DNA of 64,000 nt from Candidatus Daviesbacteria bacterium (GTDB taxonomy: Bacteria > Patescibacteriota > Microgenomatia > Daviesbacterales > UBA10151): contig JACPDA010000004.1 in assembly GCA_016184225.1 (NCBI GenBank), positions 538,763 to 602,762 of the forward strand, in the 5' to 3' direction. This document shows positions 51,060 through 61,743 of this stretch, in pieces. The notes under the pieces were generated by a model that saw nothing but the letters and a program-made list of their open reading frames with translations, was not told the origin of the DNA and searched no databases. How positions within the stretch are numbered: the stretch's first letter is position 1; each line of letters starts with the position of its first letter. Position numbers and translations under genes: made by a program.

Positions 51060-53081
51060 ATGCCGAAGTTTCAGATTGTTTCCGATTTTAAGCCCACCGG
51101 GGATCAGCCGCAAGCTGTTAACAAGCTGGTGGTAGGCCTCAAGCAGGGTAGACAACATCAGGTCCTTCTTGGGGTAACAGGCTCTGGCAAGACTTTTACC
51201 ATGGCCAATGTGATTGAAAAAGTGCAGAAACCGACCCTGATTATTTCCCACAATAAAACTCTGGCAGGGCAGCTGGCCCAGGAATTCCGCTCGCTTTTTC
51301 CCGAAAATGCCGTGGAGTACTTTGTTTCCTACTATGATTATTACCAACCGGAAGCTTATATTCCCCAATCTGATACTTATATTGAAAAAGATGCTTCCAT
51401 CAATGAAGAGATTGAAAAACTGCGGCTGGCTACTACTGCCTCTTTGCTCACCCGCCGGGATGTAGTAGTGGTGGCTTCTGTTTCCTGTATCTACAACTTG
51501 GGTTCACCAATTGAATACGGCCAGGCCATTTTGGAAATCGGCCAAGGCATGAAAGCTGGGATGGCTCAGGTGATGAAAATTCTGCAGAAGATGTATTACG
51601 AGAGAAATGACATAGATTTCAAGAGAGGTTCATACCGGGTGCGGGGGGATACGATCGATATTTTCCCATCCTACATGGATCAAGGTTACAGGTTACAGTT
51701 TTTAGGCGACAGGTTGGAAAAACTAGGTAAGCTGGAGGTGGTAACAGGAAATACCGAGGAAGTGTTCGGGACCCAGGTAGTTTATCCGGCCAAGCACTAT
51801 ATTACTCCGGAACAGCGGGTGGTCCCGGGAGTTAAACAAATAGAAGCTGATCTAGAGTCTAGAGTCAAGAGTCTAGAGTCTAGTGGGAAGCTGGTGGAGG
51901 CGCAAAGGCTGGAACAGCGGACTAATTATGATTTGGAGATGATCAGACAGTTTGGCTATTGTAACGGCATTGAGAATTACTCCCGTTATTTTGATGGTAG
52001 GGAGCCCGGAGAGCCGCCTTATACTTTGCTTAACTATTTCCCCAAGGATTTCCTGGTTATTATTGATGAGTCGCATATTACCATCCCGCAGATTAGGGGA
52101 ATGTACAACGGAGACAGGTCCAGGAAAGAAACATTAATTGACTTTGGTTTCAGGCTGCCTTCAGCTTTGGATAATAGGCCTCTCCGGTTTGATGAATTTA
52201 TGAGGAATGTAAACCAGGCCATTTACACTTCAGCTACCCCGGATGAGTATGAATTATCACTGGCTCGAAGCTCCACTCCCGGTGTGTCAAGTCAATTCCA
52301 CACCGGGAGTGTAAGTTCAGATGGTGTAGCCGAACAGTTGGTCAGGCCAACCGGAATTTTGGATCCGCAAATTTCCGTTCGGCCGATTAAGGGCCAAATT
52401 GAGAACTTGATGAAGGAAATTAAGAAGCGGGTAGCAAAGCACGAGCGGGTTCTGGTAACAACTTTGACTAAAAGGATGGCAGAAGACCTGGCGGAGTATT
52501 TGCATGATAAAGGGATTAAAGTGCATTACCTGCACTCGGATGTTAAAACCCTGGAAAGAAGCGACATCCTAGCTTCCCTCAGGATGGGAGAATATGATGT
52601 GATTGTGGGGATCAACCTTCTTCGGGAGGGCTTGGACTTGCCGGAAGTGTCATTAGTAGCAATTTTGGATGCTGATAAGGAGGGGTTTTTGCGTTCCCGA
52701 ACCTCTTTGATCCAAACCATGGGACGGGCTGCCAGGCATATTAAGGGTCAGGTAATTATGTATGCCGATGTTGTCACTGGCTCCATGAAAGCAGCTATTG
52801 ATGAGGTGGCAAGAAGAAGACAGTACCAGCATGGTTACAATAAAAAGCACAAGATTATCCCCAGAAATATTGAAAAGGCCCTCCGGGAGAGGCTGATTGA
52901 GAAAGTAGAAGAGTTGGAGGTGAGTTTAGGTAAAAAAGAACTGACTGTGGAGGATATTCCGGAAAAAGAGCGGGGAAAAATGATCAAGAACCTGGAAGCC
53001 CAAATGAAACAAGCTGCAGAACTTCTAGATTTTGAAGAAGCAGCCAAACTCCGCGATCAGATCAAAGAGCTCCAAGTCTAA
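51060..53081 (+). CDS. uvrB: Excinuclease ABC subunit B
   Basis: Helicase motifs ([12 protein letters not shown]) and a C-terminal UvrB/UvrC interaction motif ([14 protein letters not shown]). Carries a GAGTC-repeat segment at 51851..51883 and a 38-nt palindrome at 52274..52311, both in frame. Confidence 0.9.
51851..51883. repeat. GAGTC/CTAG-rich repeat element inside uvrB
   Basis: tctagagtctagagtcaagagtctagagtctag, read as [11 protein letters not shown]. Confidence 0.7.
52274..52311. repeat. 38-nt palindromic element inside uvrB
   Basis: cactcccggtgtgtcaagtcaattccacaccgggagtg. Identical to 60898..60935. Confidence 0.75.
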
Positions 53082-53169
53082 CCCCTATTCAAATCTTGCA
53101 AAATAAGTTAAAATAGATGCTTAATTTCGGGAAAAATTCGTCCTTCGACGTTGCTCAGGATTATAACCT

Positions 53170-60382: not shown

Positions 60383-61743
60383 TTCCTACTTTCCTTGATA
60401 AAGCTAAACTTCCTCACAAACCCGGTGTCTATGTATATAAAGACAAAACCGGAAAAGTGTTGTACGTGGGTAAAGCAATCGACCTATACCACCGGGTTGC
60501 CTCATATTTTTCAGGTGCTATATCCTATGGTGTCAACCTAACCCACCCCGGGGGTGTGCAAGGTTCACACCTAAGGAATACTAGAACTTCTGTGCTAAGT
60601 AATCAAATTGCTGCAGTAGAGACTATCGTGGTCGAATCTGAATTGGAGGCTTTAATCCTGGAAGCGAGCCTGATAAAAAAATACCTGCCGCCGTTTAATA
60701 CCAGGCTGACTGATGACAAAGACTATTTGTACATAATGGTGAGCAAGGATGATTTTCCCAAAATTCTGACTGCCAGGAAAAAGGATTTGAAGGCTGCAAA
60801 AGAACACTGGGGTCCTTTCCCTTCCAGCAGGACCGTCAAAGAAACTCTGAAATCCTTAAGGCGGGTTTTCCCCTGGTGTTCCCTTTCTTCGAACCTACAC
60901 TCCCGGTGTGTCAAGTCAATTCCACACCGGGAGTGGAAACCTAGGCCGTGCTTTTATTACCACCTGGGACTTTGCCCCGGGGTATGTATTTGCTTAGTTA
61001 ATAAGAAAGATTATCAAAAAATAATTACTAGGTTTTCTAAATTCATGGATGGTAAAATTGAAGAGCTGGTTGCTCAGTTGCTCGCAGAAATGATACAAAA
61101 ATCTAAACAGCGAAAGTTTGAAGAGGCTGCCAGGATTAAAAAAATCCTGGAGGGGATTACTTACCTGACACAGCCCAACCGGATCAAGCTTTATTTGGAA
61201 AACCCGAATTTCCTGGAAGATGAACGGCAGATTGCCCTGGAAGAACTTAAAAAAGACTTAAAGCTCAAAGTCTTACCCGGGCGGATAGAAGGCTATGATA
61301 TCTCCAATATCCAGGGTAAGCAAGCAGCCGGATCCATGGTGGTTTTAACCAACGGCGAGGTCGACAAAAGCCAGTACAGAAGGTTTAAGATTAATCCGCC
61401 GGCCGGCGGATCCGGTCAGCCAAATGATGTCGGAATGATGCAGGAAATTATCAGAAGGCGTTTGGCTCATCCAGAGTGGCCCAGACCTGACCTAATTATA
61501 ATTGACGGGGGACGTGGTCAAGCAAATGGCGCATACCGCCAACTCCAGGCTGCTAATTACCAAATACCAATCTTTGGTCTTGCTAAGAGAATGGAATGGC
61601 TTTATCCGCCCGAGGAAGAGATTTTGAAACTGCCAAAAAAAAGCCTGTCTTTGAAGCTGCTGCAAAAACTGCGTGATGAAGCCCACAGGTTTGCCATAGG
61701 TTACCACAGAAAACTAAGGAATCGAGTAATGATAGGATATTAG
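60379..61743 (+). CDS. uvrC: Excinuclease ABC subunit C (short form, no C-terminal HhH2)
   Basis: GIY-YIG domain (GVYVYKDKTGKVLYVGKAIDL...R), UvrBC motif, and an RNase H-like endonuclease domain ending DEAHRFAIGYHR. In-frame palindromic insertions at about 60544..60571 and 60898..60935. Confidence 0.75.
   Translation: MIPTFLDKAKLPHKPGVYVYKDKTGKVLYVGKAIDLYHRVASYFSGAISYGVNLTHPGGVQGSHLRNTRTSVLSNQIAAVETIVVESELEALILEASLIKKYLPPFNTRLTDDKDYLYIMVSKDDFPKILTARKKDLKAAKEHWGPFPSSRTVKETLKSLRRVFPWCSLSSNLHSRCVKSIPHREWKPRPCFYYHLGLCPGVCICLVNKKDYQKIITRFSKFMDGKIEELVAQLLAEMIQKSKQRKFEEAARIKKILEGITYLTQPNRIKLYLENPNFLEDERQIALEELKKDLKLKVLPGRIEGYDISNIQGKQAAGSMVVLTNGEVDKSQYRRFKINPPAGGSGQPNDVGMMQEIIRRRLAHPEWPRPDLIIIDGGRGQANGAYRQLQAANYQIPIFGLAKRMEWLYPPEEEILKLPKKSLSLKLLQKLRDEAHRFAIGYHRKLRNRVMIGY
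60898..60935. repeat. 38-nt palindromic element inside uvrC
   Basis: Identical 38-mer to the uvrB copy. A related GGTGTG..CACACC variant lies at 60544..60571. Confidence 0.75.

Follow-up and report, generated by a model that had tools for sequence, protein, structure and literature searches.

The described system closest to the repeats considered here is that of the repetitive extragenic palindromes (REPs), their inverted doublets (REPINs) and the REP-associated tyrosine transposases (RAYTs), in which short imperfect palindromes occur alone or paired, the inverted pairs folding into a long hairpin, the repeats are over-represented and lineage-specific with copies often lying directly past stop codons and between convergent genes, and a single-locus, vertically inherited transposase gene of the Y1/HUH type has its cognate repeats as flanks (Nunvar 2010; Bertels & Rainey 2011; Ton-Hoang 2012; Bertels, Gallie & Rainey 2017, PMC5581495). 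The same traits are found in a 64,000-nt stretch of DNA from a Candidatus Daviesbacteria bacterium (contig JACPDA010000004.1, hereafter the window), where a 38-nt hairpin sequence, CACTCCCGGTGTGTCAAGTCAATTCCACACCGGGAGTG, lies inside both uvrB and uvrC. We think it likely that this 38-mer is a miniature, REPIN-like REP doublet which RAYT-type enzymes mobilise and which selection keeps in frame where loops are permissive; the tyrosine transposase whose gene lies between uvrA and uvrC has probably spread it. As far as the literature searched extends, this REP-doublet family in Daviesbacteria is ordinary in kind and previously undescribed, with no paper found there that brings REPs together with the candidate phyla radiation (CPR), Microgenomates or Daviesbacteria. 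What is new, again as far as could be found, is that the RAYT-like gene keeps its place between uvrA and uvrC and that different hairpin families recur at single codon positions.

The Daviesbacteria repeats also depart from the described REPs in several respects. The units are smaller, with a 13-nt core and a 37-41-nt doublet compared with REPs of roughly 20-40 nt (PMC3733652) and larger doublets; they carry no GTAG or CGTC tag and a large share of them is intragenic. The hairpins beside the transposase gene are direct and not inverted as is usually described, the enzyme, at about 215 aa, is longer and falls short of the curated cut-off for RAYTs, and the host is of a Patescibacteria (CPR) lineage, its genome measuring about 0.77 Mb. 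REPs inside genes are documented exceptions, as Di Nocera, De Gregorio & Rocco (2013, BMC Genomics 14:522; PMC3733652) described REP singles and dimers wholly within open reading frames (ORFs), with dimers and grouped repeats adding 20-30 aa, with several inserts per gene and with excinuclease genes among the hosts (uvrB of R. conorii, uvrA of Thioalkalivibrio and uvrA of O. terrae), and proposed that they are tolerated in flexible linkers or loops. The present repeats resemble those in lying within ORFs, uvr genes included, with multiple inserts per gene, whereas the 2013 repeats, from Proteobacteria, Verrucomicrobia and other phyla, bear a GTAG or CGTC tag, and that study mentions neither different repeat families recurring at one codon position nor a RAYT gene in the uvr cluster. 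An extragenic location is not the rule in the window, where about half of the copies lie inside ORFs (uvrB, uvrC twice, an RsmI-like methylase gene, gatA and a Wzy_C-type gene). Rickettsia palindromic elements (RPEs), which are said to go back to work by Ogata and colleagues in 2000, are reportedly in-frame palindromic selfish repeats that are found in many unrelated genes and are translated at surface-compatible positions. RPE-1 is about 100-150 bp long and has an alphaproteobacterial host, and we know of no transposase associated with RPEs. The Daviesbacteria repeats resemble them in behaviour only, as in-frame translated palindromic inserts, the unit here being 38-52 nt.

Within the window the 38-mer occurs exactly twice, at 52274-52311 in uvrB and at 60898-60935 in uvrC, both on the + strand and with 0 mismatches; a search of the window at up to 3 mismatches gave no third site, and 0 were expected from 100 shuffles. 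It consists of two 13-nt arms, CACTCCCGGTGTG and CACACCGGGAGTG, which are exact reverse complements of each other and enclose a 12-nt spacer, TCAAGTCAATTC, that is not self-complementary. The initial annotation of an identical 38-nt perfect palindrome in both genes is thus right as to the identity and the two sites, and the perfect complementarity belongs to the arms alone. Each arm is a quasi-palindromic core of the form CAC-N7-GTG that could fold on its own as a mini-hairpin of 5 bp and a 3-nt loop, and for the whole hairpin the predicted folding energy is -15.9 kcal/mol (z = -7.0) in DNA and -26.3 kcal/mol (z = -4.8) in RNA. We refer to sequences with these arms as family A. Conserved flanks enlarge the element in uvrB to about 52267-52319, and the flanks of the uvrC copy, GAACCTA and GAAACCTA, are common to an intergenic copy in another genome (L029).

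The two copies are read in different phases, c ACT CCC GGT GTG in uvrB and CAC TCC CGG TGT in uvrC, with 12 residues encoded in each case, and therefore the conserved entity is the nucleic acid and not a peptide. That both copies are in frame, as first proposed, is true in that both ORFs stay open, not in the sense of a common reading phase. The arms of family A are free of stop codons in all six frames, and TPGV..HTGS is the commonest phase among the coding copies. Several other identities were tried and rejected. At gathering thresholds Rfam recognises only five tRNAs in the window, none of them near the two sites, which gives no ground for a known RNA family or tRNA-related element; neither 38-mer precedes a T-run or is called by a terminator scan; the doublet patterns of family A and of family B (described below) are both absent from 2.9 million viral contigs, which speaks against a phage origin; and the UvrB and UvrC proteins at NCBI exactly match the window, which speaks against an assembly artefact. 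Independent Logan contigs are 100% identical to the window over 55221-60868, a range that ends 30 nt before the uvrC 38-mer and leaves that copy without independent confirmation.

The uvrB gene (51060..53081, + strand, 673 aa, identified with Pfam) has its insertion after YELSLA, within the stretch connecting its two helicase regions, the N-terminal (ResIII/DEAD) and the C-terminal (Helicase_C). Among its 120 closest homologues (73-90% identity) the empty site reads YELSLA-GK-DG and the baseline length is 654-657 aa, and in the window 18 residues replace the GK of the closest empty orthologues. The comparison (673 against 657 aa) confirms the in-frame insertion of about 17 residues that had been proposed, with the size corrected to a net gain of 16 aa. 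The nearest orthologues, at about 88% identity, are empty, the DNA of L094 reading GCC GGT AAA GAC, and in B. caldotenax UvrB the insert corresponds to an 18-residue gap between residues 402 and 403. Structure prediction gives a coil with pLDDT below 50 at residues 402-436; the model as a whole is of low confidence (mean pLDDT 60.6) and serves only as weak support for that coil.

About 50 of the 120 orthologues have the same position filled, by at least 8 different hairpin families whose translations include STPGV..HTGS, HLRGV..HLGGG, HPRGE..HPGGE, STSEV..STSEV, ATPEV..TSGV and SSVILNEAK..QDDK, and at some of these sites two hairpins stand in tandem. Filled alleles are patchy over the UvrB tree, mostly start with R and often end with Y. 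At the DNA level four genomes have four different hairpins with perfect 13-nt arms at this position, namely CACTCCCGGTGTG in the window, CAATCCCGGTTTG in L080, AACCCGCGGGGTT within a perfect 36-nt palindrome in L079 and CACCTCCGAGGTG in L092. The L080 copy combines a spacer nearly the same as that of the window with a four-fold symmetric change in sequence and with the flank subtype of the window's uvrC copy, a combination which points to replacement or re-insertion and not to simple descent. A longer insert, at the equivalent of 52265-52320, is present in the UvrB orthologues P0021, P0022, P0035, P0074 and P0104, where it reads SSVILNEAKRSEES...QDDK or IASGAKQSRTEIAASQTPRNDEK; seen here as protein only, these strings are presumably peptide signatures of a widespread hairpin repeat of many uncultivated bacteria.

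In uvrC (60379..61743, + strand, 454 aa, identified with Pfam) there are two REP-type insertions and a further 18-nt palindrome. The 38-mer gives a net gain of 15 aa compared with orthologues that read FPWCSLS-WKTRPCFYYH, and other orthologues have at this site decayed copies such as QSRIVKSIPIRDWK or another hairpin, TCGCAAGG..CCTTGCGA, so that the site behaves as the UvrB site does, with one position and varied hairpins across genomes. The second insertion, at 60530..60575 on the + strand in the region of the GIY-YIG domain, is a single-REP hairpin with the stem GGTGTCAACCT / AAGGTTCACACC and the 13-mer CACCCCGGGGGTG (60544-60556) at its tip; a related variant had been noted at 60544..60571, and it proves to be a real hairpin that adds 19 aa, is lacking in L079, L089 and L094 and is present, partly decayed, in L080 and L092. 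The UvrC of the window is short, is named 'GIY-YIG nuclease family protein' at NCBI and matches the GIY-YIG and RNase H-like endonuclease domains of Pfam with no C-terminal helix-hairpin-helix domain matched. The 18-nt perfect palindrome, ATCCGCCGGCCGGCGGAT at 61394-61411, encodes PPAGGS and amounts to a 5-residue insertion relative to T. maritima UvrC; it is found in 15 of 120 orthologues as PAGG, PVGG or similar, kindred inserts (LPAGRQG, CLPAGRP, PPVGRAG) are found elsewhere in UvrB and UvrC orthologues, and it probably represents a further family of short palindromic repeats.

Family A is dispersed well beyond the window. Scanning one genome per species with a shortened stem pattern gave 33 loci, nine of them in Microgenomates (Curtissbacteria, Daviesbacteria and others), and all nine have the full 13-nt arms with varied spacers of 6-20 nt; the matches in high-GC actinobacterial genomes were set aside as chance, being terminator-like and without the CA/TG extension to full arms. 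A metagenome scan with the full arms added 45 more family A loci. In L029 the identical 38-mer, with the flanks of the uvrC copy, is intergenic and begins 5 nt past the serS stop codon between convergent genes. The intragenic copies lie in genes for tryptophanyl-tRNA synthetase (TrpRS, trpS), RecO, LepA, a ThyX-like protein, TsaB, TsaD, ribosomal protein S8 (rpsH), a nuclease, a transporter and a glycosyltransferase, these hosts being named by reading of the ORF translations and not by family search. Most of the distinct copies in these scans outside the window are non-coding or at gene ends, and roughly 40% are inside ORFs. The 3' flanks read GTGTAA, GTGTAC or GTGGAA. Alignment of five copies did not delimit insertion boundaries or target-site duplications, and the flanks of each copy resemble imperfect direct repeats of 6-7 nt. 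The same 13-nt arms are also seen with GACA...TGTC spacers, which give a longer stem, and often with GTGAC/GTCAC flanks, in Ga0209536 and related metagenome contigs (L036, L039, L043, L048-L050, L053-L059, L066, L067, L072, L077, L078); the GC content of these contigs, 44-50%, is above that of the window, and the family A arm sequence may be common to lineages beyond Microgenomates.

The candidate for the mobilising enzyme is a RAYT-like Y1 (HUH) transposase of 215 aa (57721..58368, - strand) that matches the Pfam family Y1_Tnp, 'Transposase IS200 like'. Its sole match in NCBIfam is the REP-associated tyrosine transposase model NF047646 (E=3.6e-15, 56 bits, the equivalog cut-off being 80), and all 22 aligned homologues match this model and no other of NCBIfam. 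Compared with solved structures, the profile of the family fits best to E. coli TnpA-REP (4er8, E=0.0045), with ISDra2 TnpA at E=0.11, and both the HUH motif HFH (residues 81-83) and the tyrosine motif RYIHxNP (140-146) are invariant in the 22 homologues. The identical protein is found on 13 contigs, always in the same context, and tblastn found no second copy in the window. Homologues at 64-75% identity lie between uvrA and a transglutaminase-uvrC pair in all six Daviesbacteria genomes examined for them (the window, L089, L090/L091, L092, L095 and L096), and the gene is missing from three genomes that are otherwise syntenic (L079, L080, L094). A single locus held at the same position despite 64-75% identity indicates vertical descent of the transposase gene and not transposition.

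REP hairpins stand on both sides of the gene, one just upstream at 58377..58409 (TTTAGCTTTA CACCTTCGAGGTG TCAAGCTAAA) and one just downstream at 57683..57725, which has the core CACCTTCGAGGTG and overlaps the stop codon. Such genome-specific core hairpins accompany the RAYT-like gene generally, with the same core on both flanks in the window (CACCTCGAAGGTG), L089 (CACCTTAAAGGTG), L090 (AACCTTAAAGGTT), L092 (AACCTGAAAGGTT) and L096 (CACCTGAAAGGTG) and with two near-identical cores, AACCTTAAAGGTT and AACCTTCCAGGTT, in L095. Where the closing pair of these cores changes from C-G to A-T the change is compensatory, on both sides of the core and on both flanks. The flank core also recurs away from the gene, at 41, 20232 and 35499/35527 in the window and at 18609 in L096, and a near-identical one lies at 15505 in L095. 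The metagenome contig L062, which encodes a RAYT homologue at 52% identity, has CACTCCCGGTGTG-CAATAGCTGTA-CACACCGGGAGTG upstream of that gene (40-76) and CACTCCCGGTGTG downstream (748-760), and family A arms beside a RAYT homologue link the family of the 38-mer directly to RAYT-like genes. A strict co-variation of the intragenic arms with the local RAYT core was considered and rejected, as in L092 the flanks are AACC..GGTT but uvrA, uvrB and uvrC contain copies of the form CACC..GGTG. The hairpin upstream of the RAYT-like gene also contains the top sigma-70-like match of the 51-62 kb region (TTGACA-17-TAAACT at 58375-58403, - strand), and sigma-70-like matches are no more numerous in that region than in shuffles.

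Sister repeats occur throughout the window. Of its 19 CAC-N7-GTG 13-mers, 17 are self-complementary at five or more of six positions where about 1.6 would be expected, and CACCTTCGAGGTG at up to 1 mismatch occurs 8 times against an expectation of 0.04. These cores take two forms, either doublets with perfect 13-bp stems or single cores that tip longer hairpins. There are four such doublets, with spacers of 11-15 nt, beginning at 35499, 35758, 52274 and 60898. The first, which defines family B (35499..35539; arms CACCTCGAAGGTG / CACCTTCGAGGTG, spacer 15 nt), lies at the junction of two convergent genes, has arms identical to the core that flanks the window's transposase and adds about 11 codons to an RsmI-like ORF. 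The convergent ORFs, 33957-35696 (+) and 35498-36244 (-), overlap by 199 nt and their orthologues in L079 end 3 nt apart; the PEP-utilizer ORF at this junction measures 579 aa against 511 aa, and the doublet appears to have displaced both stop codons. Family C (35758..35794; CACCTGGAAGGTG / CACCTTCCAGGTG, spacer 11 nt) is inside the RsmI-like methylase gene and is an insertion (HLEGEQHRHLPGE) relative to L079 and L090. A single-REP hairpin at 20219..20257 inside gatA has the same TTTAGCTTTACACCTTCGAGGTG sequence as the transposase flanks, and there the net length is unchanged compared with Aquifex GatA. An extra copy of the core CACCTTCGAGGTG lies at 41..53 upstream of the window's first gene, and the core variant CACCTCCCAGGTG is found in a hairpin at 3612..3624 inside the gene of a Wzy_C-type membrane protein (2998-4167, - strand) and in an intergenic hairpin at 9193..9205 downstream of a TPR gene (9225-10835).

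The repeats built on GAGTC are of another kind. They had been counted as a second palindrome family, but they are runs of 3-4 tandem heptamers GAGTCNN (for example TCTAGAGTCTAGAGTCAAGAGTCTAGAGTC) and form no hairpins. The runs are located in uvrB (51851-51883), uvrA (53604-53617 and 53821-53848), the ORF at 14297-16108 (15198-15218) and the 3' end of gatA (20936-20960), and TCTAGAGTC occurs 6 times in the window against 0.26 expected. The run in uvrB encodes 11 residues, and the length is unchanged relative to B. caldotenax UvrB.

Taken as a REP-type system, the 38-mer would be two inverted 13-nt REP cores about 12 nt apart. It is a member of a superfamily whose short palindromic repeats are scattered over Microgenomates genomes. 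The repeats would be recognised as single-stranded hairpins by putative RAYT-type Y1 (HUH) tyrosine transposases, one of them encoded between uvrA and uvrC, that copy or move them, and insertions would land anywhere with those that break genes being purged by selection. The survivors would then be found in intergenic DNA, often directly past stop codons, or at tolerated intragenic sites where the net change in length is a multiple of three, no stop is introduced and a surface loop or a linker between domains has room for the 13-19 extra residues. On this account the copies in uvrB and uvrC would be translated passengers, presumably neutral, and not functional protein modules. A copy-and-paste spread is suggested by the identity of the two 38-mers, non-palindromic spacer included, in two different frames and by the identical intergenic 38-mer of L029. 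That the in-frame state results from selection we infer from the presence/absence polymorphism, the length-variable positions, the depletion in coding DNA relative to gene density and the different frames. The initial annotation was correct that palindromic repeats of more than one family have been inserted at the DNA level with the host ORFs left open, and it had allowed that the 38-mer might be unique to its two sites with the residues conserved in orthologues without a palindrome; copies are clearly dispersed and orthologues empty.

Several observations sit less comfortably with a REP doublet moved by a RAYT. The transposase scores 56 bits where the NCBIfam equivalog cut-off is 80. The repeats are without the GTAG or CGTC tag of the described REP super-families, neither GTAG/CTAC nor CGTC/GACG being conserved beside the arms in the aligned copies, where CTAC is confined to the subtype with AACCTA flanks. 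The RAYT gene flanked by family A itself was found only on a contig of another organism and not in the window, and in the Daviesbacteria loci the direct and not inverted orientation of the two flanking hairpins looks more like the ends of an IS200 element. The flanks of the copies resemble imperfect 6-7-nt direct repeats, which a Y1/HUH mechanism would not make. Random insertion followed by tolerance does not readily account for a single UvrB codon position with at least 8 hairpin families and a patchy phylogeny, and it leaves the four-fold symmetric change between L080 and the window unexplained. Lastly, the movement of the repeats, and the part in it that we assign to the RAYT-like enzyme, are deduced from comparison of genomes.

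An alternative that keeps a transposase, and that we consider unlikely, is that the hairpins are non-autonomous derivatives, similar to transposable elements of the miniature inverted-repeat type (MITEs) or palindrome-associated transposable elements (PATEs), of an ordinary insertion sequence (IS) of the IS200/IS605 type, that IS being made up of the gene and the two subterminal hairpins that lie on one strand (57683-58409, about 740 bp). IS200/IS605 elements and their PATEs or MITEs do share with the present locus a Y1 HUH transposase with subterminal hairpins on one strand and dispersed hairpin-only derivatives; the two hairpins have the same orientation, as left and right ends of IS200/IS605 do, the unit is of IS200-like size, the Pfam match is to Y1_Tnp and the score with the RAYT model of NCBIfam is under its cut-off. 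An ordinary IS would be expected as a multi-copy mobile unit with a patchy, non-syntenic distribution, whereas what is found is one locus, the same on 13 independent contigs and syntenic in six genomes diverged to 64-75% identity, without a TnpB partner and with no multi-copy IS seen. Furthermore, none of the 22 homologues matches any IS200 model of NCBIfam, the profile favours TnpA-REP (4er8) over ISDra2 TnpA and the L062 flanks are inverted with respect to the spacer.

Since uvrB and uvrC are both hosts, it had been proposed that palindrome families target the genes of nucleotide excision repair. This is not borne out, as hairpins of the window are also found in the RsmI-like methylase gene, gatA and the Wzy_C gene, in intergenic DNA and beside the transposase gene, and the unbiased scans show no preference, with arms in many unrelated genes and most distinct copies intergenic. 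Two of the three uvr genes are among the about 5 host genes of the window, an excess that was noted after the fact and in which gene length is a confounder. What keeps a weaker link with repair genes open, as a minority possibility, is the RAYT-like gene in the uvr cluster and the independent report by Di Nocera et al. 2013 that other phyla have REPs in UvrABC genes; these authors doubted that their matches in UvrABCD genes were fortuitous (PMC3733652). It would seem rather unlikely that the repeat system and excision repair are functionally coupled in Daviesbacteria, a notion which could be built on the RAYT in the uvrA-uvrC neighbourhood, the re-occupied codon positions of UvrB and UvrC and the stems that are kept perfect; single-stranded DNA generated by repair or damage might then drive hairpin turnover, or the hairpins might tune uvr expression. 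Such coupling, if true, would offer a concrete way into the question of how RAYTs serve their hosts.

Another explanation, in our view improbable, is that the hairpins are selected cis-acting elements which act in mRNA or single-stranded DNA to tune uvr expression, for instance by making ribosomes pause at domain boundaries, through mRNA stability or through an interplay of RAYT and excision repair that is linked to damage, or that the encoded peptides modify UvrB and UvrC. In favour of it are perfect-stem hairpins of differing sequence at the same UvrB and UvrC positions in many lineages, stem complementarity that is kept through multi-site symmetric changes, the conservation of the RAYT-like gene within the uvrA-uvrC cluster, the view of Di Nocera et al. 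on the UvrABCD matches and the strong predicted fold as RNA. Yet most orthologues, the closest included, do without the insert, the same element is found in many unrelated genes and in intergenic DNA, and the two copies are in different frames and share no peptide; nor is there an Rfam match or a terminator-like tail, and in many orthologous copies decay is visible in the protein. Least probable of all, and by a long way from being likely, is that the hairpins are not mobile and arise and become perfect in place by template-switch (quasi-palindrome) mutagenesis at fragile sites, which would suit the perfect stems with variable spacers at recurring sites and, if the switching were intra-molecular, the symmetric multi-position differences among orthologous copies, but which is largely refuted by dispersed identical copies, failing as it does for three unrelated loci of two genomes that have the same 38-mer, the same non-palindromic spacer and common flanks, for identical 13-nt arms at dozens of unrelated loci and for repeats on both sides of RAYT-like genes.

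Understood as REP doublets, these repeats extend REP/RAYT biology to the ultra-small, gene-dense genomes of Patescibacteria, in which intergenic space is scarce and the repeats persist as translated passengers in protein loops. For annotators they account for many of the odd inserts of 13-20 residues (TPGV..HTGS, HLRGV..HLGGG, HSRC..HREW and similar) in conserved CPR proteins, and such inserts should not be taken for functional motifs. The position of the RAYT-like gene and the re-use of codon positions provide tractable comparative data for the gain, replacement and loss of REP doublets.

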